From contig CALWBW010000003.1 of NCBI GenBank assembly GCA_944376195.1, positions 2,707-66,706 on the forward strand: a DNA stretch of 64,000 bases, given 5' to 3'. This DNA comes from an uncultured Clostridia bacterium (lineage in GTDB: Bacteria > Bacillota > Clostridia > Oscillospirales > QAMX01). Positions 48,033 through 64,000 of this stretch are shown here, piece by piece; the stretch's first letter is position 1; every line of letters begins with the position of its first letter. Below the pieces are notes generated by a model. That model was given only the letters and a program-made list of their open reading frames with translations. It was not told the DNA's origin and did not search any database. The position numbers were made by a program, and so were the translations under genes.

Positions 48033-50216
48033 ATGGCTTATAAAATTGCGTTAGCGGGCAATCCCAACAGCGGAAAGACCACGCTTTTTAATGTATTGAC
48101 CGGCTCCAACCAGTTTGTGGGCAACTGGCCGGGCGTGACGGTGGAGAAGAAAGAAGGGTATTTGAAATCCGACCATGAAGTGGTCGTGGTGGACTTGCCG
48201 GGGATTTATTCGCTCTCGCCCTACACATCGGAAGAAGTGGTGGCACGGCGTTTCCTGGTCGGGGAGCATCCGGACGCCATTCTCAATATTGTGGATGGTA
48301 CCAATTTGGAGCGCAATCTGTATCTGACGACACAGTTGACCGAACTGGGGATTCCGGTGGTAATCGCGGTCAATATGATGGACGTCGTAACGAAAAATGG
48401 GGACGTCATTCATATTCACAGGCTGTCGGACGAGCTGGGGTGCGAAGTGATGGAGATTTCCGCCCTGAAGGGCACGGGTATTGCGGAGGCAGCCCGGACG
48501 GCGGTGGAAAAGGCCAAGGCCCGGATGCATCCGGAACCGAAGCATAATTTCAGCGGCAGTGTGGAACATGCCATTGCGCATATTGAAGAGGCTATGGCCG
48601 GGCGATTGCCCAAGGGGCAGGAGCGCTGGTATGCGATCAAACTGTTTGAGCGCGACATGCGTGTAATTGAAGAACTGCAGCTGCCTGCGGAGCTTATCGC
48701 GCATATTGAAGAGGACATTCGCAGCTGTGAGCGGGAACTGGACGACGATGCGGAGAGCATTATTACAAACGAACGTTATAATTATATTACTGCCCTTATC
48801 CGGGAGTGTTATACGCGCAAAAACGCACCCGGAATGACGATTTCCGACAAGATCGATTATATTGTGACCAACCGCTGGCTGGCGCTTCCCATTTTTGCGG
48901 CGGTGATGTGCCTGACCTACTACATATCTGTGACGACGGTTGGCACTTGGGCAAACGACTGGGCTGCAAACGGCGTGTTTGGCGACGGTTGGACTTTTTT
49001 TGGACACTTTGTTCCGGGAATCCCCAGCGTGGTGGAAAACGCGCTGACGAACTGGGGCTGTGCGGACTGGCTGGTGCGTCTGGTTGTCGACGGAATTATC
49101 GGCGGCGTGGGGTCGGTCCTGGGGTTTATCCCGCAGCTTTTGGTGCTCTTCTTTTTCCTGGCGTTTCTGGAAGCGTGCGGGTACATGTCGCGGATTGCGT
49201 TTATCATGGACCGTATTTTCCGGAAATTCGGGCTTTCCGGTAAGTCGTTTATCCCCATGCTCATCGGCACGGGATGTAGTGTGCCGGGCATTATGGCATC
49301 GCGTACCATTGAAAGTGAACGCGACCGGAAAATGACGGTGATTACGACCAGTTTTATCCCGTGCAGCGCGAAACTGCCGGTAATTTCCCTGTTTGGCAGC
49401 GCCATTTTCGGCGGCGCGTGGTGGGTGGCGCCCAGCGCGTATTTTGCCGGAATTGTCGCGGTGCTCTGCTCCGGGATTTTGCTGAAAAAGTTCCGGATGT
49501 TCCGGGGTGAGGACGCGGCGTTTGTGATGGAGCTGCCTGCGTATCACTGGCCCACGCCGCGCAACCTCCTTCGTTCCATGTGGGAGCGGAGCTGGAGTTT
49601 TATCAAAAAAGCCGGAACGGTGATTTTGCTGTGTTCCATGCTGATTTGGTTCCTCTCGAATTTTGGCGTTGCAAACGGCCGCTTTGGTATGGTGACGGAT
49701 ATGGGCGACAGCCTGCTGGCTGCGTTTGGCAACTTGATCGCCTGGATTTTCCGTCCTCTGGGCTTTGACGAATGGTCCTGCGCCGTCGCGACGCTGACGG
49801 GTTTGGTGGCCAAGGAAAACGTTGTCTCCACATTTGGCGTTTTGTTTGGCGCGGGAGAGCTTTCAGAGAATGGTGCGGAGCTGTGGCAGCGCCTGTCTGA
49901 GATGTTTACGCCGTATTCCGCTTATGCTTTCCTGATATTCAACCTGTTGTGCTGCCCCTGTGTGGCGGCGGTCGGTGCGATCCGTCGGGAAATGCACAGT
50001 GCGAAGTGGACGCTGTTTGCGGTAAGCTACCAGACGGGGCTTGCGTACTGCGTGGCGCTGACGGTAAACCAGCTGGGCGCGCTGTTTGCCGGGCGGGGTT
50101 CCTGGCTTGGTACAGCGGCGGCCTGTTTGGTGATTGCGGGATTCCTGTATCTGCTTTTGCGCCGGAAAAAACCGGCCCCGGTGGCGGAGGAAAAACGGGA
50201 AGGCGCGGCGGTATAG
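48033..50216 (+). CDS. feoB: Ferrous iron transporter FeoB (paralogue 2)
   Basis: 727 aa, colinear and highly similar to 9022..11190 (GNPNSGKTTLFN, DLPGIYS, NMMD). Confidence 0.96.
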   Translation: MAYKIALAGNPNSGKTTLFNVLTGSNQFVGNWPGVTVEKKEGYLKSDHEVVVVDLPGIYSLSPYTSEEVVARRFLVGEHPDAILNIVDGTNLERNLYLTTQLTELGIPVVIAVNMMDVVTKNGDVIHIHRLSDELGCEVMEISALKGTGIAEAARTAVEKAKARMHPEPKHNFSGSVEHAIAHIEEAMAGRLPKGQERWYAIKLFERDMRVIEELQLPAELIAHIEEDIRSCERELDDDAESIITNERYNYITALIRECYTRKNAPGMTISDKIDYIVTNRWLALPIFAAVMCLTYYISVTTVGTWANDWAANGVFGDGWTFFGHFVPGIPSVVENALTNWGCADWLVRLVVDGIIGGVGSVLGFIPQLLVLFFFLAFLEACGYMSRIAFIMDRIFRKFGLSGKSFIPMLIGTGCSVPGIMASRTIESERDRKMTVITTSFIPCSAKLPVISLFGSAIFGGAWWVAPSAYFAGIVAVLCSGILLKKFRMFRGEDAAFVMELPAYHWPTPRNLLRSMWERSWSFIKKAGTVILLCSMLIWFLSNFGVANGRFGMVTDMGDSLLAAFGNLIAWIFRPLGFDEWSCAVATLTGLVAKENVVSTFGVLFGAGELSENGAELWQRLSEMFTPYSAYAFLIFNLLCCPCVAAVGAIRREMHSAKWTLFAVSYQTGLAYCVALTVNQLGALFAGRGSWLGTAAACLVIAGFLYLLLRRKKPAPVAEEKREGAAV

Positions 50217-52743: not shown

Positions 52744-54504
52744 TTACAAGGGTGGTTGGTGCTTTTCTAAAAATCCCACAAGATCCTCTTCCTGAATATC
52801 CACGGAATCTCCCGAGCCATCCTGCGCATAGAGACGGAAATATAGGGGGTCAGACTCCGGACTGTCGGCGCCAACCAATAGAGAAAATGGCCCATTTGTC
52901 TCATAAATCCGAATATACAGGCCGGAACCGGACTCTTCATAGAAATAGTGATCCAACGAGGACCAACGCAAGGCGCTTTTTTCCTGAGAAAGACGGAGGA
53001 TATCCTCTATCGTGAGAACCTGCGCCGGTTCCGTGGAATCGGGTGCGCTTTCCTGCGGAAGCAGAGTAGTTTCATAGAATACCGCACGCAAAACAATTAA
53101 ATACGCAGCTTCCGCCAAAAGGTCGGGATTTTCCTGCAGTGTCCTGGGAGTAAACGATTGCAGGATTCCTTCGCCCATATCAAAGGCCATGACGGCAAGC
53201 AGGCTGGAAGTGTCCGGCGTCACCGGAATCCGCTCTCCTTCCTGATAAGAAGAAAACGACCAACCGATTACCGATGCATTTTCCGGAAACGCAAAATATG
53301 TGAGCAATGAACCGCCGTATTGATCTGTTTCAACCTGAATTTCAACACCCGTAGAGACACCATCCGTAGTACGAAAGTTGACAAAACATTGGATTTCTTT
53401 TGCAAGAGAGGTCAGAGAGATGGGAGCGCTTCTGACACATTCTCCGTAGCTCCACTGTTCAACATAAAGTTCTCCACTGCCTACCCGGGTTCCTAATTCA
53501 ACCTCAAATTGCGCGGAAGGGGATCGGGCGGAATGAGAGACATTTATCAATCGCAGGTTATCATGAGGGGAAAGAGGAATGGTCAAAAAACAAACTGCCA
53601 GAATGAGACCAAGCAGCAGCGAGAGCGCCAGGATCCAACGCTTTGGTTTTTGATAAGAGAGGATTCGCTGAATGCGGGCTTTTACGTCAAGTTCCCCAAA
53701 GGCCAGAGGATAAAACGACGGCGACTTCGGGCGGATACTGCAATGAAACAGTGCCGTCGCATATGCACGGCGCTCGTCTTCGCCCAGTTCTTTCAGCACT
53801 TTTTCATCACAGGAACCCTCAATATCCCGGCAAAATACCAGATATGCAATCCATAAAAGCGGCTGGAACCAGTAAACGGAGAGTAGAAAGAACCCGATTA
53901 TTTTCCAAATGTGATCTTTCCTTCGAATGTGCGCACGCTCGTGGGATAAAACATAGGTAAGATCTTGATCGGGTATTTGATAGGGAAGATAAATTACAGG
54001 GTGAAATAATCCCAGAACAAAGGGCGAAACCGCCCATTCGCTCTGTTTCACCCGCGTTTGCAAAGGGATGGCAGTGGCGACACGGTGCTTTAAAACGAGA
54101 TAACTTCCTATTGCATAGAAGAACATTGCCAATATCCCTGCAACCCAAATATGGGACAAAACAAGCGACCAGACCTGTGCGGGGTTTACACTATCTCCAG
54201 GGTCCGGCGCCATGGAACTGGCTAAAAAGGGATTCACGGCATCGTCTAAAAGCGCTACGCCGGTTTCAATTTGAGGGGAATCTGTTTGCATGCTTTCTTG
54301 TAAAATGGGTTCGGCACTGGGAATTAAACTGAACGTACTTTCCAGGGAAATTGGGCAGATAAGGCGCAGGGCAACGAGCCCCCACAGCGCGCAACAAATC
54401 CATTTTGGCATGGTGCGAAGGAACAGGCGAATTATTAAGATTGCGAGAATCAGCCAGCCGGCAGTCAGGCCCAAATTGACGAGTTTGAAAAAAACAGCCT
54501 CCAT
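52744..54504 (-). CDS. BlaR1/MecR1-family (M56 peptidase) membrane sensor with non-PBP extracellular domain
   Basis: N-terminal TM helices, zinc motif HERAHIRRKDH, and a C-terminal ~280 aa lacking an SxxK penicillin-binding motif. It lies 4 nt downstream of the BlaI-like gene. Confidence 0.82.
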   Translation of the reverse strand: MEAVFFKLVNLGLTAGWLILAILIIRLFLRTMPKWICCALWGLVALRLICPISLESTFSLIPSAEPILQESMQTDSPQIETGVALLDDAVNPFLASSMAPDPGDSVNPAQVWSLVLSHIWVAGILAMFFYAIGSYLVLKHRVATAIPLQTRVKQSEWAVSPFVLGLFHPVIYLPYQIPDQDLTYVLSHERAHIRRKDHIWKIIGFFLLSVYWFQPLLWIAYLVFCRDIEGSCDEKVLKELGEDERRAYATALFHCSIRPKSPSFYPLAFGELDVKARIQRILSYQKPKRWILALSLLLGLILAVCFLTIPLSPHDNLRLINVSHSARSPSAQFEVELGTRVGSGELYVEQWSYGECVRSAPISLTSLAKEIQCFVNFRTTDGVSTGVEIQVETDQYGGSLLTYFAFPENASVIGWSFSSYQEGERIPVTPDTSSLLAVMAFDMGEGILQSFTPRTLQENPDLLAEAAYLIVLRAVFYETTLLPQESAPDSTEPAQVLTIEDILRLSQEKSALRWSSLDHYFYEESGSGLYIRIYETNGPFSLLVGADSPESDPLYFRLYAQDGSGDSVDIQEEDLVGFLEKHQPPL

Positions 54505-54508
54505 GCCT

Positions 54509-54868
54509 TTACTCCCCCTGCTTTTCTAAAATACGCTGAATTTCTGCAATTCCTGTATCAGATAATGCCTGCCTCCGTCCAAAGGCTGCAAGAAAAGCAG
54601 GTAACGATCCCTCAAATGTGTTTGTCATCAGCGCTTCCATTTCTGCGGCTTGCACGTCTTCTTTGCTGACGAGAGACGTGACGATCGTGTTTTCACTTTT
54701 CACGACGCCTCGATCCTTTAACCTTTTGATTACGGTATAAGTGGTAGTTTTACTCTATCCCAGTTCTTCGCGGCAAAGCTTCGCGAGCTTGGTGCTGTTA
54801 ATCGGTTCATGGCGCCAGAGAATGAGACAAAACCGGTATTCACTTTGAAAAATTTTTGGGGTTGACAT
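54509..54868 (-). pseudogene. BlaI/MecI/CopY-family repressor gene interrupted by an in-frame amber codon
   Basis: The reading frame is MSTPKIFQSEYRFCLILWRHEPINSTKLAKLCREELG-TAG-SKTTTYTVIKRLKDRGVVKSENTIV.... The TAG at 54757-54755 sits where the family has a conserved Trp (TGG). Confidence 0.75.
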
Positions 54869-55465: not shown

Positions 55466-55939
55466 ATGGACATAGGAGAGATCATTTATAAGACCCTGAT
55501 AGACGGTGATTCTTATAAAACTTTGCTAAAAGGCCTGGGAATGACTTTACAGATTTCTCTGTTTTCCATTGTGATTGGAACTCTGCTGGGCATGGTTATT
55601 TGCGCCCTGCGAAGAAGCCGGTTACGGATCATTCGGGGCATCGCAGCAGGATACATTGCCGTGGTGAGGGGCAGCCCGGTAGTACTGCTTCTCATGCTGA
55701 TGTATTATGTGGTATTCGCAGGGAGCGGCGTGTCTGCATTGATGGTGGCTGTAGCGGCATTTTCTCTCCATATGAGTGCTTATACGGCAGCCTGTTTCTA
55801 TGGCAACGTACAGGGGTATGAATCGGAAAGAGAAGAACTTCTGATCACCGACGACTATTATACCGACAATGTTTTTTATGTAACCAAGGACTATGATATG
55901 GATAAGATTTTGGAGGCAATGGAGGAAAAACAAGGCTAA
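55466..55939 (+). pseudogene. Truncated/chimeric amino-acid ABC transporter permease (HisM/GlnP family N-terminal part)
   Basis: The first ~115 aa match the 3-TM amino-acid permease family (...IRGIAAGYIAVVRGSPVVLLLMLMYY...SLHMSAYTA...). The EAA-loop region and the C-terminal half are replaced by unrelated acidic sequence. No SBP or ATPase gene is adjacent. Confidence 0.55.
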
Positions 55940-55985
55940 GTTACAATAGAAGAGAATCATTCATAATTGCTTGGAGGATGAAAAT

Positions 55986-56282
55986 ATGAATATCAGCAAA
56001 ATGGTAAGTGGAACTGTACTGAATATTTCTCTGGAGGGTCGGCTGGATACAACAACTGCGCCGCAGCTGGAAGCGGAACTCAAGCAGTCTATGGAAGGAA
56101 TCACACAACTTGAATTGGACTTCGATAAGCTGGAATATTTGTCTTCTGCCGGACTGCGGGTCATCCTGGGCGCACAGAAGACGATGAACAAGCAAGGGAA
56201 AATGGTCGTTCGTCATGTCAACGAAACCATTATGGAAGTGTTTGAAGTGACCGGCTTCATCGATATTCTCACGATCGAATGA
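55986..56282 (+). CDS. STAS-domain anti-sigma-factor-antagonist-like protein (SpoIIAA/RsbV family)
   Basis: 98 aa with ...LDTTTAPQLEAEL...LDFDKLEYLSSAGLRVILGA.... RBS GGAGGA. Confidence 0.88.
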   Translation: MNISKMVSGTVLNISLEGRLDTTTAPQLEAELKQSMEGITQLELDFDKLEYLSSAGLRVILGAQKTMNKQGKMVVRHVNETIMEVFEVTGFIDILTIE

Positions 56283-57682
56283 AAGGGGAGATGAGGCAGG
56301 GTGTGAAAATGAGGCTGCTGGAGCAGGCGGCTCAAGCGGCAAAAAAGGAAGACCTGTTGAAAGATATTGTCGTTTTACATATCAACCACTGCGTGGAGAA
56401 CACGTTTTATTTTAACGACGTACTCAGAGGACTGTTCCGTCATGTAACTCTGCTGACACCGCCCTATAGCAATCAGGATATCCCTGAAAATTACACAGGA
56501 TCGTGCTATCACGGTATGCGGCGAAACGGCGTCTATTATCTGATGAAAAATGGGATCGAGACAGGCCGCCGCAGCACGGAATTTCTCGAGTCCACCATAC
56601 TTCTGCTGGAAGAAGCTTTTCGTGGGGAACTGATTCCCCTGCTGCGTCAGGGGAATCAGTTGCTGATTGTTGAGGATGGAGGATACCATTTTGAGGCGCT
56701 TCCTCGTATAAAGCAGTTGTTTCCGGAGGTGGAAGATCGTATTATTGGCGTAGTGGAACAGACGACTTCCGGAACCAGAAAAAGCATGAGCCGGCAGGGC
56801 TACCGGTATTCTTATCCATGCGCCAGTATTTCTCGATCGGATATTAAAATGCATGTAGAATCCATCTTTATCGGGCAACGAATTGTGGAAGAGCTCGGAC
56901 TGATGCTGTATGCGGCAGATGCTTTTTTCTCTTTCCATTCCGTATTGCTGCTTGGCTACGGAATCATAGGGCGCAGCTGCCGTATGGCTTTAACAGGGCG
57001 TTACTGCCGGCTGGAGGCCTATGATACGAATCCACGCATGTTGAAAGTCGCCGAGGATGACGGCCTGTGGGTTTATTCTCAACCGTCTCCAGAGATGTTT
57101 TCAGAAGACACAATTGTCATAGGCTGTGTGGGCGCGCCTTCTTTTGGCGAGGGCATGTTTTGTGCTTTCCTGGAAGGCCGGGGAACAAATCTTTATCTGG
57201 CCAGCGGCTCTTCAAAAGATGTGGAGTTTTCCTACTTTCTTCGGTATTTAAAGGGGGAAGAAGCAAACATTCCCTGCCTTGTGCTTGAAAAACAGGAGGC
57301 CGCCGAATGGTATGTCCGCTATGATTTTCGTTATGGCGGCATAGAAAAAAACGTGTATTTAATGGCGGAAGGGAAACCGGTGAATTTTTATCGAAAAGGC
57401 GTGATCAGTCTGACTTACCGCGTGATTGATCTGGTGTTTACGGAAATGCTTCAAATGGCGCTGTACTTATGCCGAAACCGGAATATCCCTCCTCAGCTTT
57501 ATATATTAGGAGAAGATAATCCAATCACAAGAGCTGTTTCCGAAAAAGAAATGCTCGATTTGTGGTTTCAGAAAAATCATTTTTGGTATCAGGGGGCGCT
57601 GGAATCTTTTTTACAGCCTCATCCCCTGGCTGGTGAACTGCGAAAGAACACATGGGAGAAGGATCATGGAGAAAATTATTAG
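56279..57682 (+). CDS. Divergent S-adenosyl-L-homocysteine-hydrolase-fold protein (function unknown)
   Basis: By-eye colinear matches to SAHH motifs: LLIVEDGGYH (DDGGD), VVEQTTSGTRK (EETTTG), LLGYGIIGRSCRMAL...RLEAYDTNP (GYGDVGKGCA...EIDP), VIGCVGAPS, LASGSSKDVEF (NIGHFDxEI), YLMAEGKPVNF (LLAEGRLVNL). The ATGA overlaps the STAS stop. Confidence 0.6.
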   Translation: MKGEMRQGVKMRLLEQAAQAAKKEDLLKDIVVLHINHCVENTFYFNDVLRGLFRHVTLLTPPYSNQDIPENYTGSCYHGMRRNGVYYLMKNGIETGRRSTEFLESTILLLEEAFRGELIPLLRQGNQLLIVEDGGYHFEALPRIKQLFPEVEDRIIGVVEQTTSGTRKSMSRQGYRYSYPCASISRSDIKMHVESIFIGQRIVEELGLMLYAADAFFSFHSVLLLGYGIIGRSCRMALTGRYCRLEAYDTNPRMLKVAEDDGLWVYSQPSPEMFSEDTIVIGCVGAPSFGEGMFCAFLEGRGTNLYLASGSSKDVEFSYFLRYLKGEEANIPCLVLEKQEAAEWYVRYDFRYGGIEKNVYLMAEGKPVNFYRKGVISLTYRVIDLVFTEMLQMALYLCRNRNIPPQLYILGEDNPITRAVSEKEMLDLWFQKNHFWYQGALESFLQPHPLAGELRKNTWEKDHGENY

Positions 57683-59435
57683 GCGGACATTTTTCAAATT
57701 TTTCGGCCCTACCCTGATAGCGTCATTGGCGTTGGCCATCGTCTCCATGACCGATTTGATTGTAGCAGGCCAGCTTTTGGGCAGCAGTGCGTTTACCGCT
57801 ATCAGTCTGGCATTGCCGGTGACAATTTTTGTGCAAATCATTGCGATGATTTTCGGCAGCGGCGCCGGAATTGTACTATCTAATTATTTGGGCCAGGGTC
57901 AGAGAGACCGCTGCAATCAGGTGTTTACCACCGCGCTGCTTTCGGCATTGGCCATAGGCGTCGCAGCAGCGGTGGGAGGTCAGCTTTTTTTAGATCAGTT
58001 ACTGCTGCTTTTGGGTGCGCAGCCCGGCGAAAGCATGCATTATGCTCGCCAGTATATTGGTGTTTTGCTGCTTGGTATGCCCTTTTTGATTTTGGCGCCG
58101 GTGCAGTTTACTTTTTTGCGCAATGACAGTCATCCCCGCTACACAATGTTTTGCGTATTGGCAAGCGGTATATGGAACCTGATCGCAAACATTTTGCTTG
58201 TACTTCTGTTTGATCTGGGACTTGCGGGTATTGCAATTGGCACCGTCACTTCCCAAATACTTGCTTGCGTGCTTTCCGGCCTGAAACTTTATCAAAAAAA
58301 CGGCAGTTTTCATCTGATAAAGGCTGGCTGGTCTTTTTCTGCCGTTCAGGAGATGGTAAAACCCGGTTTGCCGGCCGCTATGATTTTCTTTTTTCAGGTA
58401 GTGCTCACACTGGTAATCAATCATACTCTGGCTATGACCGGCGGTGATCGTGCGGTGGCCGTATACGCCGTGGTAAAGTACTTGATAACGTTTTTCTATG
58501 CCTTGTACGATGGTGTGACTGGTTCCATTCAGCCGATGCTGGGTATCTACCAGGGCGAAGGAGAAATTGATAATTTGCGCCGCACGGTTTCTGTATCTTT
58601 TAAAATGACGTTGCTGATTGCGGTGGGACTCACTTTCGTTATGGAAGTGGGAGCGCCGGTAATCAGTTTGATTTTTGGCGTGGAATCCGATATGCTGGAT
58701 ATCACTGTAACGGCTATTCGTATTCAGGCATTATTCTGCATTACAGCCGGAATACTGGCTTTTCTGGGCGCTTTTTATCGATGCACCGGCCATTCGGGAG
58801 TGTCCATGATCATTGCCGTGTGCAATAATTTGATTTTCCCAGTGTCTATCATTCTGCTGCTGGCAAATTTTACGTCTCTTGGCAGCAATAGTGTTTATTG
58901 GGGGCTGGTTCTTACCGATTACGCCACTTTTCTGGTGTTGTTTGGCGTTGTGTGGATACTGCGTAAACCGCAGGAATCCCGATTGCTCCTGCTCCCTGTT
59001 AAGGATACTCAGAGCAATGGACAGACATATCAAGTGCTGATCCAGGATAAATACGAAAATATTCCCCAGATTTCCACAGAAATCGATCGCTTTTGCGAGG
59101 ATCGTGGCGTCAGTTTCAAAAAACGATATTATATTTCTCTTTGTATGGAAGAGCTTGTCGTCAATGTGATTCAAATGGGATTTCATAAAGAGCATGATAA
59201 CTATATTGACATCCGGGTATCAGTATTGGAAAACGGGCAAGTGGCCCTGCGCATTCGGGACGACGCGGTGGAGTTTGATCCGACCCAATCCCAGGAGGTT
59301 TCCCCGGGAGAGCTGTTGGATGGTTCCCATCAGGAGGAGCATAACGAATTGGGCCTGCTCCTGGTGAAGAAAGTAGCCAGTTCTTATTCTTACAAGCGCA
59401 CGGTGGGATTTAATAATTTTATGGTAGTGCTTTAG
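57666..59435 (+). CDS. MATE-family transporter fused to a C-terminal RsbW/SpoIIAB-like GHKL (HATPase_c) domain
   Basis: About 450 aa of 12-TM MatE-like sequence, then the N-box EELVVNVIQMG, ...IRDDAVEFDP... and ELGLLLVKK. ATG 57666 overlaps the previous gene by 17 nt. Confidence 0.75.
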   Translation: MEKIIRRTFFKFFGPTLIASLALAIVSMTDLIVAGQLLGSSAFTAISLALPVTIFVQIIAMIFGSGAGIVLSNYLGQGQRDRCNQVFTTALLSALAIGVAAAVGGQLFLDQLLLLLGAQPGESMHYARQYIGVLLLGMPFLILAPVQFTFLRNDSHPRYTMFCVLASGIWNLIANILLVLLFDLGLAGIAIGTVTSQILACVLSGLKLYQKNGSFHLIKAGWSFSAVQEMVKPGLPAAMIFFFQVVLTLVINHTLAMTGGDRAVAVYAVVKYLITFFYALYDGVTGSIQPMLGIYQGEGEIDNLRRTVSVSFKMTLLIAVGLTFVMEVGAPVISLIFGVESDMLDITVTAIRIQALFCITAGILAFLGAFYRCTGHSGVSMIIAVCNNLIFPVSIILLLANFTSLGSNSVYWGLVLTDYATFLVLFGVVWILRKPQESRLLLLPVKDTQSNGQTYQVLIQDKYENIPQISTEIDRFCEDRGVSFKKRYYISLCMEELVVNVIQMGFHKEHDNYIDIRVSVLENGQVALRIRDDAVEFDPTQSQEVSPGELLDGSHQEEHNELGLLLVKKVASSYSYKRTVGFNNFMVVL

Positions 59436-59452
59436 TATGTCTGCCGGAAAGG

Positions 59453-61834
59453 ATGGAAAATATGAGGGAAATTTTTACTGTTTTCCGTAAGAAGAGCGCA
59501 TGGGGGCATATGGTGTTAAGCGCTGTGGTGTTCTTTGCCATAGCATTGCCCTTTCGCAGCTTGTTCACCCTTTTGCCGGGGGTGACGGAGATCCGTCCTG
59601 CCAATATGGTGCCGCTGGTATTTGGAATTCAGTTTGGCCCAGCCGCCGCCTGGGGTATTTCCATAGGGAATCTGATTTCCGATATTCTGTCAGGTTCTCA
59701 TGTATTTGTTTGCGCCACGGGGTTTGTGGTAAACTTTTTTTATACCTATATTCCATACAAACTGTGGTACACGCTGCGTCTGGGCAAAGAACCCATCCAC
59801 CCAATCCGCCTCAATACGGTACAAGAGATCGTAAAATATATTTTGGTGGTTTTAATTGACTCTTTTGTTACCACCGTGTCTTTGTCCCTGATTTTCGAGG
59901 CTGCGGGATTCCAGTCGTTTTCTTCTTCTTTTCCGCTGTTGTTTTTCAACAATTTCGATTTCGCGATCATTCTGGGCATTCCGGTGCTCTCCTTCTGGAA
60001 TAAGACGCGTCTGCGCTCGGAAATACCGGAATACCGGAAAAATCCAGGGACCCGACGCAGTGTTCGCTGGTTGGATTTGCCGCTTGTTATCATTGCCGTT
60101 ACTGGTGTGGGGTATTTTTTCTATTCCCTGCTTCAAGGAGGAATGATAAACAGCTCCCTTGCACTGGGGGTTCTCTGCATCGCGATCGCAAGTCTGATCG
60201 TTTACGCGTTTCGTCCTTCCGACAAAGTGGAGCCTCTGCCCCCCAGCCGGGAAGGCGTCAAGATTTCTATTAAGGCGAAGGTAACCATCGGTTTTCTGCT
60301 GCTGACCTTGGTATTCCTGATTTTGTTGGCAGTCGTGTCTTATAATGCGCTTCAAGTGGGCGGAGAACTTGAGCGGCTGGAGGTTTGGAACTATATTTAT
60401 CTGGTGCTGGGAATTACCATCAACCTGCTTTACGGTATTGCCATTCTGTTTTTGTGGTATGTAGAGCGGAATATTACCACCCCTGTGGAGCGTCTTTCTT
60501 ACCTGACGGAGCTATATGCCAGACAAGAACATGAACATGACGCAAGTCTTGCATCGCGTTTGCAGAAACTTGCTGACGCGATTCCAAAAGGAGATGAAAT
60601 TGGCGCTTTGGCGCTTTCCTTCCGGAACATGATGGATGAGCTGGACGACTATATGGCAAACTTGGCGGTGGTCACCGCAGATAAGGAACGCATTGCCACA
60701 GAACTCAATGTCGCCACGCAAATTCAGGCCTCTATGTTGCCCTGTATTTTCCCGGCATTCCCCGGCCGCAAGGAGTTTGACGTCTATGCGACTATGACCC
60801 CGGCCAAGGAAGTGGGCGGAGATTTTTATGATTTCTTCCTGATAGACGACGATCACCTGGCGCTGGTGATTGCAGATGTTTCAGGGAAAGGGGTACCGGC
60901 GGCATTATTCATGGTGATTGCCAAAACTTTGCTGAAAAATGCTGCGCAAACGGGTCTTTCACCGAAAGCGATACTGGAGAAGGTGAATAATCAGCTCTGT
61001 GAAAATAACGAAGCGGAAATGTTTGTCACCGTGTGGCTGGGGATTTTTGAAATTTCCACTGGGAAACTGATTGCGGCCAATGCCGGCCACGAGTACCCGG
61101 CAGTCAGACATCAAGGCGGGAAATTTGAGCTTTACAAGGATAAGCACGATTTTGTGTTGGCTGGCATGGAAGGCGCTCGCTATCGGGAATATGAGATGAT
61201 TTTAAAACCCGGCGATACCCTGTTTGTCTACACAGACGGTGTGGCGGAAGCCACTGACGCCACCAACACGCTGTATGGAACGGATAGGATGCTAACTGCA
61301 CTCAACCGGAACGAGAAGGCTGACCCCGAGAAACTTCTCCAAAGCGTGAAGGAGGATATTGATATGTTTGTGGGCGAAGCGCCGCAGTTTGACGATATCA
61401 CCATGCTGGCATTTAAAATCAAGGATTTTCAACTGGAAGGTATGAAAAAAATAAGCGTTTCTCCGCAGCTTGCCAGTATTGATACCGTCACGGACTTTTT
61501 TGAAACCTGCCTGACGGAGCAGAATGCGCCTGTAAAAGTAGTGTCCCAAATCAATATTGCAGTGGACGAGATTTTTTCCAATATTGTGCGGTATAGTGGC
61601 GCGACATCTGTTTCAATAGGATGCCGGGCAGAAAAGGACCACGTTGTGCTCCGCTTTGCGGATAACGGGAGACCTTATGACCCGACGGAAAAGGATGACC
61701 CGGATATCACGCTTTCGGCTGAGGAACGGGACATTGGCGGGCTTGGCATCTTTATGGTTAAAAAAACAATGGATGACATTTCATATGTGTATGCTGATGG
61801 CTTTAACATTCTGACTATCCAAAAACGATGGTAA
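59453..61834 (+). CDS. Membrane QueT/ECF-S-like domain, HAMP-like linker, PP2C phosphatase and RsbW-like GHKL domain in one protein
   Basis: N-terminus: ...TEIRPANMVPLVFGIQFGPAAAWGISIGNLISD...YIPYKLWY. PP2C: VGGDFYDF, IADVSGKGVPAALFM, VYTDGVAEA, DDITMLAF. GHKL: DEIFSNIVRY, ADNGRPYDP, GGLGIFMVKK. An alternative start is ATG 59462. Confidence 0.8.
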   Translation: MENMREIFTVFRKKSAWGHMVLSAVVFFAIALPFRSLFTLLPGVTEIRPANMVPLVFGIQFGPAAAWGISIGNLISDILSGSHVFVCATGFVVNFFYTYIPYKLWYTLRLGKEPIHPIRLNTVQEIVKYILVVLIDSFVTTVSLSLIFEAAGFQSFSSSFPLLFFNNFDFAIILGIPVLSFWNKTRLRSEIPEYRKNPGTRRSVRWLDLPLVIIAVTGVGYFFYSLLQGGMINSSLALGVLCIAIASLIVYAFRPSDKVEPLPPSREGVKISIKAKVTIGFLLLTLVFLILLAVVSYNALQVGGELERLEVWNYIYLVLGITINLLYGIAILFLWYVERNITTPVERLSYLTELYARQEHEHDASLASRLQKLADAIPKGDEIGALALSFRNMMDELDDYMANLAVVTADKERIATELNVATQIQASMLPCIFPAFPGRKEFDVYATMTPAKEVGGDFYDFFLIDDDHLALVIADVSGKGVPAALFMVIAKTLLKNAAQTGLSPKAILEKVNNQLCENNEAEMFVTVWLGIFEISTGKLIAANAGHEYPAVRHQGGKFELYKDKHDFVLAGMEGARYREYEMILKPGDTLFVYTDGVAEATDATNTLYGTDRMLTALNRNEKADPEKLLQSVKEDIDMFVGEAPQFDDITMLAFKIKDFQLEGMKKISVSPQLASIDTVTDFFETCLTEQNAPVKVVSQINIAVDEIFSNIVRYSGATSVSIGCRAEKDHVVLRFADNGRPYDPTEKDDPDITLSAEERDIGGLGIFMVKKTMDDISYVYADGFNILTIQKRW

Positions 61835-61854
61835 TACGGAAAAAGAAGGAACGT

Positions 61855-63531
61855 ATGGATATGCGAAGCAGAAAATTTTACCGATTCGGCGCATGCTTTC
61901 TTGTATTGCTTCTTTTGTTGTCCGGCCTGGCGGGCTGCAGGACAGAACAACAAGGGGAAAATGTTGTAATTCTTTATACAAACGATGTCCACTGTGCGGT
62001 AGATAGCTATATCGGGTATGCCGGACTTGCAGCATATAAGGCGTGGATGCAGGAGAGCACTCCCTATGTGACGCTGGTAGACTGCGGGGATGCTCTGCAG
62101 GGGGATATTATTGGCACCATATCCCAGGGCGAGTATTTGATAGATATTATGAACCAGATCGGATATGACTTTGCTGTGCTGGGAAATCATGAGTTTGATT
62201 ACGGCATGAAGCAACTTCAAACCCTGCTGGAAGAGGCGGAGACACAATATTTGGGCTGTAATATCCGGTATACAGGTACTGGTTTGAATGCTGTTTCGTC
62301 CCTCAAGCCTTATGAGCTTGTCTCATATGGGGAGATAATGGTGGCTTTTGTAGGAGTCTCTACCCCGGAAAGCATTGCCCAGTCTACGCCTGCATATTTT
62401 ATGGACGAGTCCGGTGACCTGGTCTATGATTTTTACGGAGACAGCGGAGAGACGCTGTATATGCAGGTTCAGGAAACGGTGGACGCGTGCCGTGAGGAAG
62501 GCGCAGACTATGTCGTTGTGTTGGCGCATTTGGGAGACGACGAGAATTTTGCTCCTTTTCGTTCTATCGATTTAATTGCCGCTACTACCGGCATTGACGT
62601 AGTGTTGGATGGCCATTCTCACAGTGTGATACCTTGTGATATTGTAAACAATAAAAACGGAGAAAAGGTGCTGCTGTCTTCAACCGGCACGGGACTTATG
62701 AATATTGGACAGCTGGTGATTACGGCCGATGGAAATCTTACCGCCGGGCTCATCAGTGATTTTCCGGATGTTGATGAGGAAACCGATATCTTTGTAAAGG
62801 AGATACAGAGCCAATACGAGACGGAAATGAATCGAACGATAGCCTATACCGATGTGCAGCTTACTACCAAGTCGGAGTCTGCCATCCGTTTAGTCCGAAA
62901 CCGCGAGACCAATTTGGGTGATTTGTGCGCCGACGCGTATCGGGCGGTTTCCGGGGCGGATATTGCCTTTGTCAACGGCGGCGGCATTCGTGCCGATATA
63001 GAAGCGGGGGATATTTCCTATGGAGAGATCATCGCCGTCCAGCCATACGGCAACACGCTTTGCGTTGTCGAGGCAACAGGCCAGGAAATTTTGGACGCAC
63101 TGGAAATAGCCAGCCGGTCAACGATGGCAGAAATGAGCGACGGTGAAAATGCTGTTGGCGAAAACGGCGGTTTTTTACAGGTGTCGGGGCTTAAATACAC
63201 AATTGACACTTCCATTCCTTCCACAGTTGAAATGGATAATGCAGGAATGTTTGTATCTTTGGGAGAAAACCGGCGAGTCAAAGACGTACAGGTGTTGCAG
63301 GCGGATGAAAGTTATGTACCAATCGATCCGGCGAAGACTTATACGCTGGCTTCCCACAATTATCTGTTGAAACAGGGCGGCGACGGTTTGAATTTATTTA
63401 CGGACAACGTATTGACTATAAATGAGGGTATGCTGGATTACCAGGTGCTTATCACCTACATTACCGACTATCTCGGCGGTACGATAGGTAGTGATTATGC
63501 CCAGCCTCAGGGCCGGATCACAGTTGAATAG
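61855..63531 (+). CDS. Bifunctional metallophosphatase/5'-nucleotidase lipoprotein (UshA-like)
   Basis: Lipobox LLLLSGLAGC. Metallophosphoesterase motifs NDVHC, DCGDALQG, GNHEFD, and a 5'-nucleotidase C-terminal domain. Confidence 0.85.
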   Translation: MDMRSRKFYRFGACFLVLLLLLSGLAGCRTEQQGENVVILYTNDVHCAVDSYIGYAGLAAYKAWMQESTPYVTLVDCGDALQGDIIGTISQGEYLIDIMNQIGYDFAVLGNHEFDYGMKQLQTLLEEAETQYLGCNIRYTGTGLNAVSSLKPYELVSYGEIMVAFVGVSTPESIAQSTPAYFMDESGDLVYDFYGDSGETLYMQVQETVDACREEGADYVVVLAHLGDDENFAPFRSIDLIAATTGIDVVLDGHSHSVIPCDIVNNKNGEKVLLSSTGTGLMNIGQLVITADGNLTAGLISDFPDVDEETDIFVKEIQSQYETEMNRTIAYTDVQLTTKSESAIRLVRNRETNLGDLCADAYRAVSGADIAFVNGGGIRADIEAGDISYGEIIAVQPYGNTLCVVEATGQEILDALEIASRSTMAEMSDGENAVGENGGFLQVSGLKYTIDTSIPSTVEMDNAGMFVSLGENRRVKDVQVLQADESYVPIDPAKTYTLASHNYLLKQGGDGLNLFTDNVLTINEGMLDYQVLITYITDYLGGTIGSDYAQPQGRITVE

Positions 63532-63966
63532 GCAGGGTCTGGCCTGCTAAAAATTAACAGCGGAATACAATCCCTCAGATTGTGGTTTCCGGGCTGATAT
63601 GCTATAATATGTCGTATCTGAAATGGGCCCGTATTTGACTGTTTTGTTCTGGCGGTAATATTTTCGAGTTTGATATTTTCTTTTCGCGGCGCCCATAGCG
63701 CATCTATGTATCGGAACATCAGGGAGACTGGTGAGCGAAAGGGTTAAGTTTCCGTCGGCAGCCGGCCTGCGGAAAGAGGTTTTTTGATTTATTGAATCCG
63801 AATAAAACAATGATTTAAATGAAGGGTGGCAACGGGTCGTTTTTTGACGGACAGGCGGCGACATCGGAGGCCAGGAAGACACTGCGCGTTGTGCTTATGG
63901 CGATCAAAGCAACCACGAAGGTATTCGCGTTATGGCTGGGAAATAGGGAGGGTGAGGTGAAACGGT

Positions 63967-64000
63967 ATGCTGCGTATTGGAATATGCGACGATAATCAGG
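63967..64000 (+). CDS. Possible response-regulator gene start (runs off the window)
   Basis: ATG after GGGAGGGTGAGG. MLRIGICDDNQ resembles the N-terminus of LytTR/OmpR-type receivers. Only 11 codons are visible. Confidence 0.3.
   Translation, partial: MLRIGICDDNQ

Follow-up and report, generated by a model that had tools for sequence, protein, structure and literature searches.

The window analysed here is the whole stretch of 64,000 nucleotides from contig CALWBW010000003.1 of an uncultured Clostridia bacterium, and towards its right-hand end it carries a run of forward-strand genes, one of which encodes a protein related to S-adenosylhomocysteine hydrolase (SAHH). The first gene of the run (55986..56282) codes for a 98-aa STAS protein of the anti-sigma-factor-antagonist type (Pfam STAS, 2.4e-13; NCBIfam ant_ant_sig, 4.7e-20, above cut-off). 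Its reading frame is open from a TTG at 55971, a GGAGG ribosome-binding site (RBS) lies 8 nt ahead of the ATG at 55986, and the public gene call also has 98 aa. The protein contains the phosphorylatable-Ser motif YLSSAGLR, which is conserved as Y[LIV]SSAGLR in 30/30 homologues. Just upstream of the gene there is a promoter-like sequence, GTTACA-16-CATAAT (55940..55967, + strand, 9/12 match), which is considered weak because such sites are no commoner than expected from shuffled sequence. The second gene (56279..57682, + strand) encodes the SAHH-like protein, termed SAHL below, a product of 467 aa in which a substrate-type domain is combined with a Rossmann domain for NAD. The same 467-aa protein is present in public gene calls on identical contigs; further in-frame starts are found at 56291 and 56309, and M11 is nearly invariant in the family. 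A chance ORF was considered and rejected, and the ORF is real. The STAS stop codon and the SAHL start codon share a 4-nt ATGA (56279-56282), an overlap that recurs in at least nine related loci and upholds the translational coupling proposed in the initial annotation. A perfect 14-bp hairpin inside the SAHL ORF (56628-56661) was flagged as terminator-like and is treated as a chance occurrence because it is not conserved in the closest loci.

The third gene (57666..59435, + strand) overlaps the SAHL gene by 17 nt and encodes a MATE exporter with a C-terminal GHKL domain of the RsbW/SpoIIAB type, i.e., MatE::GHKL1 (MatE, 1e-33; HATPase_c_2, 7e-14; NCBIfam matE above cut-off; RBS and ATG at 57666; public call of 589 aa). 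The GHKL1 domain spans about 59049-59402, and in motif comparison its N-box is kept while G1 (DxG to D-D-A) and G2 are degenerate. The fourth gene (59453..61834, + strand; likely start ATG 59462, public call of 790 aa) encodes a predicted sensor phosphatase/kinase composed of a QueT-like transmembrane (TM) domain of the ECF S-component type (about 59519-59998), a HAMP domain (about 60467-60646), a PP2C/SpoIIE phosphatase domain (about 60845-61420), and a second GHKL domain, GHKL2 (about 61460-61825), whose N, G1, and G2 boxes are intact by the same motif comparison. The Pfam matches are SpoIIE (4.9e-50, covering profile positions 1-191 of 192), HATPase_c_2 (3.9e-18), HAMP, and QueT; searched on its own, the QueT domain reaches 35.4 bits, exceeding the GA of 33.7, and 14/20 homologues match it. 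The best NCBIfam match of the phosphatase is SiaA (1.2e-19). Downstream are a predicted lipoprotein 5'-nucleotidase (61828..63531, + strand; Metallophos and 5_nucleotid_C, lipobox LAGC), listed with a 7-nt overlap with the preceding gene and probably starting at ATG 61855 or 61861, and the beginning of a LytTR-type response regulator (63967..64000, + strand, MLRIGICDDNQ...) that is cut by the window end. Nucleotide homology to the closest related loci begins at about 55965 and extends over 55965-63600. The 5'-nucleotidase belongs to this conserved block in the 4-5 closest loci only, and an Agr-like pair of LytTR regulator and GHKL histidine kinase follows the cassette in about ten related loci.

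SAHH is among the most conserved enzymes known. When an AlphaFold2 (AF2) model of SAHL (pLDDT 91.2, pTM 0.89) was compared with the PDB in Foldseek, the top 50 matches were SAHH only, with a best E of 3.5e-17 and TM of 0.62-0.75 over the full length. The modelled protein has the two-domain SAHH architecture (substrate domain plus Rossmann cofactor domain) of the human enzyme (1LI4) and the T. maritima enzyme (3X2E/5TOV), which bears out the fold first recognised by eye, and identity to the SAHH structures is 15-22%. Sequence searches reach the same family at greater distance: phmmer of SAHL against the PDB gave 7e-6, the SAHL family profile gave 7.7e-15, and hhalign against human AHCY returned a probability of 97.5% (E 6e-12, 328 columns). 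Against the three NCBIfam SAHH equivalogs SAHL scores 28.1, 27.7, and 19.5 bits, where the cut-offs are 497.6, 275, and 485 (the ahcY match has an E-value of 8e-7, with 28 bits where 498 are required), and a Pfam search of the 467-aa protein, AdoHcyase and AdoHcyase_NAD included, gave no match at E<=1. On these comparisons the homology of SAHL to SAHH is real but remote, and SAHL is not an SAHH orthologue. In the model only residues 1-7 are disordered and the first strand of the SAHH-type domain begins at residue 30; relative to SAHH there is an insert of about 25 residues forming a beta-meander at 75-99.

Residue roles, including the position rule for the HxTxQ/E fingerprint, were taken from a review of SAHH (PMC13406329, sec. 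5.3), and invariance was counted over 134 SAHL family members; human AHCY positions are given first below. The blocks listed in the initial annotation (EDGGY 132-136, EQTTSG 160-165, GYGIIG 226-231, and D249 in RLEAYD) are all present in the SAHH order. The NAD site is complete: the Rossmann motif GYGIIGR (226-232) and D249 (56954..57025, + strand) supply the GxGxxG loop, G226-Y-G-I-I-G231, and, at the end of beta-2, the acidic NAD-ribose binder equivalent to E243, and N369, the N346 ligand, lies in G365-K-P367-V-N369. EDGGY (E132-Y136, 56672..56686, + strand) is the SAHH DDGGD block, and its D133 is the catalytic D131. EQTTSG (E160-G165, 56756..56773, + strand) is the SAHH EETTTG block, with T157 kept as T162 and E156 replaced by Q161 in 134/134 members. 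In S187-D-I-K190-M-H-V-E194-S195 (56837..56863, + strand), which aligns with SAHH S-V-T-K186-S-K-F-D190-N191, the lysine is kept, the aspartate is conservatively replaced by glutamate, and the asparagine has become serine (107/134); the earlier pairing of KFDN with KMHV was two residues out of register, since K186 corresponds to K190 and D190-N191 to E194-S195.

Positions around the base and the 5' end of the substrate have diverged. The His301-Phe302 "molecular gate" of SAHH (PMC13406329) lies in N-I-G-H301-F302-D-V-E-I, for which SAHL has S309-G-S311-S312-K313-D-V-E316-F317 (57203..57229, + strand). H301 is S312 in every one of the 134 members and the gate is a Ser-Lys pair. GHFDxEI, which the initial annotation paired with GSSKDVEF, aligns with S311-S312-K313-D314-V315-E316-F317, so the replacement of H301 by S312 is correct. 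The G-H353-P motif (adenine contact and hinge) is represented by S377-L378-T379, which lies with the N369 segment in 57371..57415 (+ strand), with leucine for the histidine in 127/134. In place of the K426/Y430 tail of SAHH, which did not align, there is a family-specific C-terminal motif, H448-P449-x4-L454-R455 (57620..57643, + strand). The loop after strand 1, N36-H37-C-V-E-N41 (56384..56401, + strand), probably corresponds to the HxTxQ/E motif of SAHH (H55..E59), with H37 as the likely equivalent of H55. N36 and H37 are invariant, and position 41 is Asn in 110/134 and Asp in 24/134 members. The initial annotation had equated LHMTxET with NHCVENT here; the loop position makes that plausible, but HMMER and hhalign both leave this N-terminal stretch unaligned, and H37-C-V-E-N41 departs from the HxTxQ(E)/HxExK fingerprint.

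Taken together, K190, E194, D133, E160, T162, H37, N369, and GxGxxG are invariant in 134/134 members, as are the substitutions Q161 and S312. The catalytic and ribose set of H55, D131, E156, T157, K186, and D190 is thus broken at E156, and all six substrate-ribose binders of SAHH are kept or conservatively replaced, most of them invariantly. About half of the catalytic and ligand positions are changed and about half are strictly retained. The claim that catalytic positions look substituted holds for E156, H301, H353, and N191 and probably for the HxTxQ/E motif; K186, D131, and T157 are kept, and the change of D190 to Glu is conservative. As judged from its residues, SAHL is a deeply diverged SAHH relative that has lost hydrolase-specific residues and kept a NAD site and a sugar-binding pocket; calling this predicted pocket "dead" would be too simple. 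SAH and adenosine are improbable ligands, because the residues contacting the base and the 5' substituent are replaced; a negatively charged 5' group would be compatible with the Ser-x-Ser-Ser-Lys loop that stands where SAHH has its His gate.

An ordinary housekeeping SAHH paralogue would share the fold, and some automated annotations do name SAHL relatives "S-adenosylhomocysteine hydrolase". Against this identity stand the 28 bits obtained where equivalog cut-offs are 275-498, the lack of a Pfam match, the low identity, the replacement of E156, H301, and the GHP histidine, an unrecognisable K426/Y430 tail and HxTxQ/E motif (the latter by the presumed equivalence), and a signalling operon in place of a methionine-cycle context. 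We rejected it on scores, residues, and gene context, and regard it as hardly credible. The residue pattern of SAHL and its place in the cassette make it more likely that SAHL senses a small molecule or catalyses a new nucleoside reaction than that it is a housekeeping hydrolase. The suggestion of a sensor or adaptor instead of a hydrolase is upheld as far as the housekeeping reaction goes, but since the ribose and NAD residues are kept, an enzyme with altered NAD-dependent chemistry has to be taken seriously beside a purely sensing or adaptor role.

The gene order is widely conserved. Some 40 loci of Clostridia share a cassette of STAS, SAHL, MatE::GHKL, and TM-HAMP-PP2C::GHKL genes, even at SAHL identities as low as 33%, in agreement with the placement of SAHL between a STAS protein and a transporter-kinase fusion (MatE plus HATPase_c_2) in the initial annotation. 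The TM-HAMP-PP2C gene follows SAHL in about 38/44 Firmicutes loci, MatE::GHKL follows it in about 31, and a STAS gene is adjacent in at least 24, a pattern maintained at SAHL identities down to 33-40%. Four loci (L008, L025, L032, and L035) have SAHL, PP2C, GHKL2, and STAS without MatE::GHKL, and two loci (L037 and L040) have a MatE-SAHL pair without the switch genes; in these pairs SAHL is therefore independent of the partner switch. In Blautia schinkii the cassette is duplicated within one genome (L034 and L038). Actinobacterial and archaeal loci (L045-L050) were set aside as an outgroup, as they encode distant SAHH-like proteins in other contexts (a UbiA neighbour and others). Neither a sigma factor or other obvious output gene nor a further conserved biosynthetic gene was found among the cassette genes and their conserved neighbours. 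PADLOC gave no match for the four cassette proteins, so nothing points to the window cassette being a known defence system. In tblastn searches nothing was found in phages, and plasmids returned only distant relatives (24-30% identity) from Actinobacteria and Proteobacteria with unrelated neighbours, hence no evidence for a phage- or plasmid-borne cassette. The cassette is a hitherto undescribed, predicted phosphorylation switch of gut Clostridia with a drug-type export pump at its centre, and SAHL is a fixed part of it.

In its remaining components the cassette resembles partner-switching systems such as SpoIIAA/AB/E, RsbV/W/U, and multidomain proteins of the Rv1364c type: a STAS protein with the conserved Ser, two HATPase_c_2 GHKL domains (one intact), and a membrane HAMP-PP2C phosphatase. 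It differs from them in that one GHKL domain, with a degenerate ATP lid, sits on a MATE exporter and the other on the phosphatase, and in the presence of a QueT-like sensor TM domain and an extra SAHH-fold component. SiaABCD of P. aeruginosa is alike in having no sigma factor and in encoding an enzyme-fold protein in the operon, and it provides the precedent for a partner switch with a non-sigma output (PMC7647112, PMC8457831). By position and fusion, either SAHL or the MATE pump is a candidate partner competing with STAS for GHKL.

Our preferred reading, to which we assign a probability of roughly 0.42, is that SAHL may be a NAD-containing, nucleoside- or nucleotide-sensing cytoplasmic partner of a STAS/GHKL/PP2C switch that controls the MATE exporter. 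In such a mechanism the QueT-like TM-HAMP sensor would set the balance between the PP2C phosphatase and the motif-intact GHKL2 kinase, and this balance would fix the phosphorylation state of the conserved Ser in the STAS protein, which when unphosphorylated might dock onto the degenerate GHKL1 at the C-terminus of the pump. SAHL would fill the slot held by the sigma factor in RsbW/SpoIIAB systems and bind either STAS or a GHKL domain according to whether a ribose-containing ligand (nucleoside or nucleotide) has closed its two domains around the bound NAD, so that intracellular metabolite status could be passed through SAHL to the switch and on to export activity. Observations that speak for a sensing partner are the fold and homology, residue invariance, cassette conservation, overlapping frames, the STAS Ser motif, the fusions, the degenerate GHKL1 versus the intact GHKL2, and conserved neighbours without a sigma factor. 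On the other side, the invariance of the Lys/acid pair, D133, and the NAD site over deep divergence suits a working enzyme equally, MatE-SAHL pairs occur without the switch, GHKL1 degeneracy is read from motifs only, and distant relatives lie near or are fused to nucleotide enzymes.

The main rival reading, less likely than not, is that SAHL is an active NAD-dependent nucleoside or nucleotide enzyme that would use SAHH-type transient 3'-oxidation on another substrate or leaving group, as output or co-worker of the switch, with its product or substrate as the MATE cargo. Such an enzyme would account for the invariance of K190, E194, D133, T162, H37, and the NAD motifs in the 134 members and, largely, in 96 distant relatives, for the MatE-SAHL pairs that lack signalling genes, and for the enzyme genes around distant relatives described below; the output of the SiaABCD switch is itself an enzyme. 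A chemical precedent is angustmycin C dehydratase, AgmF, which is homologous to SAHH but has no SAH-hydrolysing activity and carries out other NAD-dependent chemistry on a different nucleoside with tightly bound NAD+ (PMC8599513). AgmF, however, keeps His56, His299, and the Asp residues and belongs to a biosynthetic cluster, and its His299 is essential (PMC8599513), whereas SAHL lies in a signalling cassette and has no equivalent of His299/His301; E156 to Gln and H301 to Ser are invariant and H353 to Leu nearly so. Also unfavourable to catalysis are the absence of any other conserved biosynthetic gene in the cassette, the natural fusion to a GHKL kinase domain (P0131), which is more typical of a regulatory domain, and the duplication in Blautia schinkii, which is typical of sensor or efflux modules.

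Two further alternatives dispense with a nucleoside ligand. SAHL might be a NAD+/NADH redox sensor of the transporter and switch resembling KTN/RCK (TrkA_N) proteins in that its Rossmann NAD-binding module is encoded beside a membrane transporter, which it would plausibly regulate. The Rossmann motif and acidic D249 are intact, the transporter gene adjoins SAHL, and several family members have weak TrkA_N profile matches; at curated thresholds SAHL is not a TrkA_N member. We consider this improbable, as SAHL carries, beside the Rossmann domain, a substrate domain of the SAHH type whose ribose pocket is invariant, and the invariant N36, H37, Y63, D133, Q161, K190, and E194 lie largely in the substrate domain and at ribose positions and would be superfluous for NAD(H) sensing. 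A ligand-independent pseudoenzyme scaffold bridging the STAS protein and the MatE::GHKL pump would fit the translational coupling of the SAHL gene on both sides, and a precedent exists in IRBIT, an SAHH-like protein which serves as a scaffold in transporter regulation and phosphatase recruitment (PMC8750324). The complete invariance of pocket residues over 134 sequences would be unexpected in a scaffold, and SAHL has no IRBIT-like N-terminal extension, which makes this quite improbable. More generally, AHCYL1/IRBIT and AHCYL2 are non-hydrolase SAHH-fold proteins that regulate membrane transporters together with kinases and phosphatases (PMC8750324), and the SAHL gene stands beside a transporter and a kinase/phosphatase pair. 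The analogy made in the initial annotation is a functional one and goes no further: IRBIT is a recent, close AHCY paralogue whose activity resides in a phosphorylated N-terminal PEST extension, whereas SAHL is an ancient independent branch in which that PEST/coiled-coil extension is absent, and genuine SAHHs match SAHL at least as well as the AHCYL1/2 chains (3MTG, 3GVP) do.

The SAHL clade is a large, uncharacterised set of SAHH-fold proteins. In a search of the whole library its profile matched 1,953 clusters (50% identity) at E<1e-10, and 215 at the stricter limit of E<1e-30. Ninety-six distant relatives, all drawn from the 150 best matches, were checked; they carry the signature E-Q-T / K-x3-E / S-x-S-S and also largely keep the catalytic Lys/acid pair, D133, and the NAD site. 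Natural fusions occur: P0131 is SAHL::HATPase_c_2 (5e-16) with G1 and G2 intact, and L041 holds another Rosetta-stone fusion. In P0102, P0105, and P0110 a kinase-fold domain is fused to SAHL; the HRD aspartate is absent from these domains, so that they are probably pseudokinases, of little value as evidence on kinase regulation. Among distant relatives, deaminase, PRTase (PRTase-CE), methyltransferase, HAD, and radical-SAM genes occur as fusion partners or neighbours, a proximity to nucleotide-metabolising enzymes that favours catalysis for the wider clade, and the kinase-fold::SAHL fusion adjoins a viperin-like radical-SAM gene, which again would suit an active enzyme. A broader proposal, rather doubtful as a whole, is that SAHL represents a large unrecognised SAHH-fold family bearing this signature, whose members would be receptors for a ribose-containing signal coupled to protein-phosphorylation switches, in one case a MATE-gating partner-switching module (a bacterial functional counterpart of IRBIT) and in another a fusion to a pseudokinase, encoded at a locus with viperin-like radical-SAM and STAND-NTPase genes that resembles an undescribed anti-phage system.

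To our knowledge, IRBIT/AHCYL of eukaryotes and AgmF of a single antibiotic pathway are essentially the only non-catalytic or re-purposed SAHH members documented so far. We found no family model or paper describing SAHL, nothing relevant in the literature on SAHH/adenosylhomocysteinase with partner switching, STAS, MATE, viperin, STAND, or radical SAM, and, in the literature searched, no description of the cassette's domain combinations (MATE-GHKL, QueT-like sensor, SAHH-fold component). SAHL represents a deep clade of bacterial SAHH-fold proteins whose active site has an invariant signature of its own and which is tied into protein-phosphorylation signalling. In gut Clostridia it belongs to a compact cassette that is widely conserved and sometimes duplicated, where it stands with a STAS/GHKL/PP2C switch, a MATE pump bearing an anti-sigma-type domain, and a QueT-like sensor, elements not previously described together. 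If its ligand and output were resolved, they could reveal a nucleoside, nucleotide, or antimetabolite input for post-translational efflux control in abundant gut commensals, and a function for the roughly two thousand (1,953) 50%-identity clusters now called "hypothetical" or mis-annotated as "adenosylhomocysteinase/NAD-binding". A connection with nucleotide-based immunity is suggested by the kinase-fold::SAHL gene, whose neighbour encodes a viperin-like enzyme.

The SAHH-like protein (SAHL; residue numbers are those of SAHL, and SAHH positions those of human AHCY) is a product of 467 aa encoded on the + strand at 56279..57682, and on metagenome contigs that encode an identical protein the public gene calls have the same boundaries. 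The motifs named in the initial annotation are present and in SAHH order, i.e., EDGGY (132-136), EQTTSG (160-165), GYGIIG (226-231) and the acidic residue D249 of RLEAYD, which ends the strand following GYGIIG. When SAHL was searched against Pfam no match was detected, and the NCBIfam ahcY model gave an E-value of 8e-7 and 28 bits, the cut-off being 498. A phmmer search of the PDB returned SAHH chains only (best 7e-6), a profile made from 30 SAHL family members found SAHH at 7.7e-15, and hhalign comparison of the 30-member profile with human AHCY (a reference identical to PDB 1LI4_A) gave a probability of 97.5% and an E-value of 6e-12 over 328 columns, while canonical SAHH gets only ~55 bits with the family profile. 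By these sequence comparisons the likeness to SAHH is genuine, yet far under family level. An AlphaFold2 model built with the family alignment as input (pLDDT 91.2, pTM 0.89) had full-length SAHH structures as all 50 of its 50 best PDB fold matches (best E 3.5e-17, TM 0.62-0.75), and because these matches are all SAHH, the fold prediction called for in the initial annotation agrees with the fold claimed there.

The residue map was drawn from hhalign and HMMER alignments to human SAHH and counted over 134 full-length family members. D133 (SAHH D131), E160 (E155), T162 (T157), K190 (K186) and N369 (N346) are kept in all 134; E194 replaces D190 conservatively, also in 134/134, D249 (D or E in the family) replaces E243 conservatively, and GYGDVGK is kept as GYGIIGR. 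The changed positions are E156 to Q161 (Q in 134/134), N191 to S195, H301-F302 to S312-K313 (S312 in 134/134), M351 to G374 and G-H353-P to S377-L378-T379. SAHL is thus without the His-Phe gate that covers the homocysteine channel in SAHH and without the GHP adenine/hinge contact, and the base-specificity fingerprint has probably been lost; the K426/Y430 tail of SAHH is also absent, with a family-specific HPx4LR motif instead. None of the alignment tools used aligned a SAHL counterpart to the N-terminal HxTxQ/E fingerprint of SAHH. In the SAHL model, strand 1 (30-35) is followed by the loop N36-H37-C-V and a helix from E40, and because this loop holds N36 and H37, both invariant in the family, the fingerprint's position as given in PMC13406329 (sec. 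5.3) makes H37 the likely counterpart of H55, in which case the SAHL fingerprint would read H-C-V-E-N. The substrate ribose in SAHH is held by E156, D190, T157, K186, D131 and the fingerprint His (PMC13406329, sec. 5.3), and all six positions appear to be retained or conservatively replaced in SAHL, the His by way of this predicted equivalence. The initial proposal of substituted catalytic positions was therefore half right: the change at GHFDxEI is borne out by the alignment, which places SSKDVEF there, whereas the pairing of KFDN with KMHV was two residues out of register, since both the acidic residue and the catalytic Lys remain in SAHL.

To judge from these residues, the pocket looks re-tuned toward another ribose-containing ligand rather than dead, and one may speculate that the Ser-x-Ser-Ser-Lys loop at the 5'-substituent site would suit an anionic group. 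SAHL has its fold in common with SAHH, but a housekeeping SAHH can in practice be ruled out, as the curated scores, E156, the His gate and the GHP motif all fail. A pure NAD(H) redox sensor and a ligand-free scaffold are both less likely because the substrate-domain pocket is invariant. The main alternative to a regulatory role would make SAHL a working NAD-dependent nucleoside/nucleotide enzyme, with its product or substrate carried by the MATE pump of the following gene. The invariant Lys/acid/Asp/His set and the enzyme-rich contexts of distant relatives speak for such an enzyme. AgmF is a precedent: this SAHH homologue has no SAH hydrolase activity but uses bound NAD+ to dehydrate a different nucleoside (PMC8599513). 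In SiaABCD the output of a partner switch is itself an enzyme (PMC7647112, PMC8457831). On balance we hold this alternative to be somewhat less likely than the regulatory reading given below.

A word-indexed search found 124 SAHL relatives (33-100% identity), nearly all unnamed proteins from Lachnospiraceae and other Clostridia, including Blautia and Qiania. An exhaustive profile search over 1.84 billion representatives returned 3,119 proteins at E<=1e-3. Of these, 1,953 reached E<=1e-10 and 215 reached E<=1e-30, with ~55 full-length "core" clusters, and the wider clade, counted as the 1,953 representative clusters, is large and uncharacterised. The signature was checked in 96 distant relatives among the best 150 profile matches: E160, T162, K190 and E194 are present in 96/96, Q161 in 77/96 and S312 in 95/96, the human SAHH residues at these six positions being E, T, K, D, E and H. 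Since it is kept in these distant relatives, the E-Q-T / K-x3-E / S-S signature, by residue identity, sets a large SAHH-like clade apart from SAHH. The more distant signature-bearing members P0201, P0211, P0248 and P0131 are fused to dCMP/cytidine deaminase, PRTase-CE, four S1 RNA-binding domains or GHKL, and on a Streptomyces plasmid (L056) a SAHL relative adjoins methyltransferase, phosphoribosyltransferase, HAD and radical-SAM genes.

The genes of the cassette all lie on the + strand, head to tail. The first (55986..56282) encodes a STAS protein (Pfam STAS 2.4e-13; above the cut-off of the NCBIfam anti-sigma-factor antagonist model), and its stop codon overlaps the SAHL start (ATGA). The third (57666..59435, with its own RBS) encodes a MATE exporter with a C-terminal HATPase_c_2 domain by Pfam (GHKL1) and overlaps the SAHL gene by 17 nt, so that SAHL does sit, as initially noted, between a STAS gene and a transporter-GHKL fusion gene, overlapping both. 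The fourth (59462..61834) encodes a 790-aa membrane protein with a QueT TM domain, HAMP, a SpoIIE/PP2C phosphatase and a second HATPase_c_2 domain (GHKL2), whose best NCBIfam match is SiaA. When the TM domain (59453-60352) was compared alone with QueT it scored 35.4 bits (GA 33.7), and 14/20 homologues match QueT. The QueT family is the ECF-type S component for queuosine precursors; a vitamin-/nucleobase-binding transporter fold has apparently been re-used here as the signalling input of a PP2C protein. The next ORF (61828-63531, +), directly after the cassette, encodes a predicted lipoprotein 5'-nucleotidase (61855..63531; Metallophos and 5_nucleotid_C, lipobox LAGC), overlaps or abuts the phosphatase gene, and is shared as part of the conserved block by just the four or five closest loci. 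The nucleotidase, QueT-like and SAHH-like parts share a nucleoside/nucleobase theme. A gene for a LytTR-type response regulator begins at the window end and is cut off after 11 codons (63967-64000, +).

All 30 of 30 cassette STAS proteins carry the motif Y[LIV]SSAGLR, which contains the Ser phosphorylated in SpoIIAA/RsbV-type proteins. The GHKL boxes were compared by motifs only, with a SpoIIAB sequence as guide: in GHKL2, on or after the phosphatase, the N, G1 (DxG) and G2 (GGLG) boxes are all intact, while GHKL1 keeps the N box but reads D-D-A where DxG is expected and has its G2 reduced, and on these motifs is likely a binding module, not a kinase.

A scan with one genome per species yielded 51 loci, in which ORFs were called and searched with the window domains. 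Among the ~44 Firmicutes loci the TM-HAMP-PP2C gene follows SAHL in ~38, MatE::GHKL follows it in ~31 and STAS precedes it in at least 24; the second GHKL is part of the phosphatase protein or is encoded by the gene after it, and the arrangement persists down to 33-40% SAHL identity. Four loci (L008, L025, L032, L035) have no MATE fusion, yet keep SAHL, PP2C, GHKL2 and STAS, and L041 and protein P0131 are SAHL::GHKL fusions, the GHKL domain of P0131 having intact G1 and G2 boxes; both arrangements support a direct functional link of SAHL to the switch. In two others (L037, L040) SAHL is accompanied only by a plain MatE gene directly before it, and such pairs speak for a direct link of SAHL to the pump. 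The cultured strain Blautia schinkii DSM 10518 has the whole STAS-SAHL-MatE::GHKL-PP2C-GHKL cassette twice, on different contigs (L034, L038), and these copies make it practical for experiments. The cassette is followed in ~10 loci by an Agr-like pair, a LytTR regulator and a HATPase_c_5 GHKL membrane histidine kinase (L001 13604-15627; L016 15170-15985; L017 15495-16793), other loci (e.g. L025 3087-7974) have a C39-peptidase ABC exporter pair and an HlyD-like protein before SAHL, and in L039 an NRPS module lies downstream.

The cassette contains each of the three parts that define a partner-switching system; no sigma factor or other transcription factor was found inside it. Its GHKL domain on a MATE pump and its QueT-like sensor are unusual attachments, and an SAHH-fold protein comes in addition. 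The most economical reading, to which we give a probability of about 0.42, is that SAHL serves as a ligand-dependent partner in a STAS/GHKL/PP2C switch acting on the MATE pump. By the mechanism we infer, the QueT-like/HAMP sensor would set the balance of PP2C against GHKL2 and hence the phosphorylation state of STAS, which in its unphosphorylated form would dock on the degenerate GHKL1 of the pump. SAHL, which would be made in fixed proportion through the overlapping reading frames, might compete or cooperate at a GHKL domain, in the slot taken by the sigma factor in RsbW/SpoIIAB, and the switching itself would come from its two SAHH-type domains opening and closing on NAD and a ribose-containing ligand.

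The parallel with IRBIT/AHCYL drawn in the initial annotation holds as a functional analogy only: IRBIT is an SAHH-like protein working with a kinase, a phosphatase and a transporter (PMC8750324), but it has an N-terminal regulatory extension, which SAHL lacks, and SAHL bears no specific relationship to AHCYL. In full-text literature searches, a bacterial SAHH-like partner-switching component, MatE::GHKL fusions and the cluster described next were all undescribed.

SAHL relatives of 725-784 aa begin with a domain of protein-kinase fold (Pfam Pkinase 1e-7 to 4e-11) in which, when the sequences were read directly, the HRD Asp was found replaced by Gly (H-H/I/T-G); the domain is therefore probably a pseudokinase. 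Fusions of 751-768 aa lie in a conserved four-gene cluster (L052 3030-10392; L053 3454-10308; L054 413-7267) together with a NACHT/AAA STAND NTPase that has an FGE-sulfatase domain at its C-terminus, a small cupin, and a radical-SAM protein matching PADLOC prokaryotic-viperin models at 4e-22. This cluster looks like an undescribed defence-type locus; PADLOC gave no match on the window cassette.

At the nucleotide level the window resembles its closest relatives over 55965-63600 only (STAS to nucleotidase), and the flanks are unrelated. The G+C content is 0.52-0.60 over the first 50 kb and 0.44-0.49 over the last 14 kb, which hold the cassette, with the change near 50000; the close cassette relatives (60-80% aa identity) come from MAGs with the labels Mediterraneibacter, Roseburia, Dorea, Oscillospiraceae, Anaerovoracaceae and even Sphaerochaetaceae, and similarity to them ends at the cassette borders. 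The G+C drop, mixed labels and border-limited similarity therefore suggest horizontal transfer or mis-binning. A terminator-like hairpin within the SAHL coding region (56628-56661; perfect 14-bp stem, 6-nt loop) was set aside as probably a chance occurrence, its stem being unconserved in the closest loci. Just upstream of the cassette, a 157-aa ORF (55466-55939) with weak N-terminal similarity to an ABC permease (BPD_transp_1, 0.015) is probably a gene remnant, and 84 nt of it (55718-55801) are 86% identical in L017. On the - strand (52744-54868) lies a BlaR1-type M56 peptidase sensor of 586 aa with an upstream BlaI/Penicillinase_R-type repressor, which is split into ORFs of 64 and 37 aa and is probably frameshifted; the same split recurs on independent metagenome contigs.
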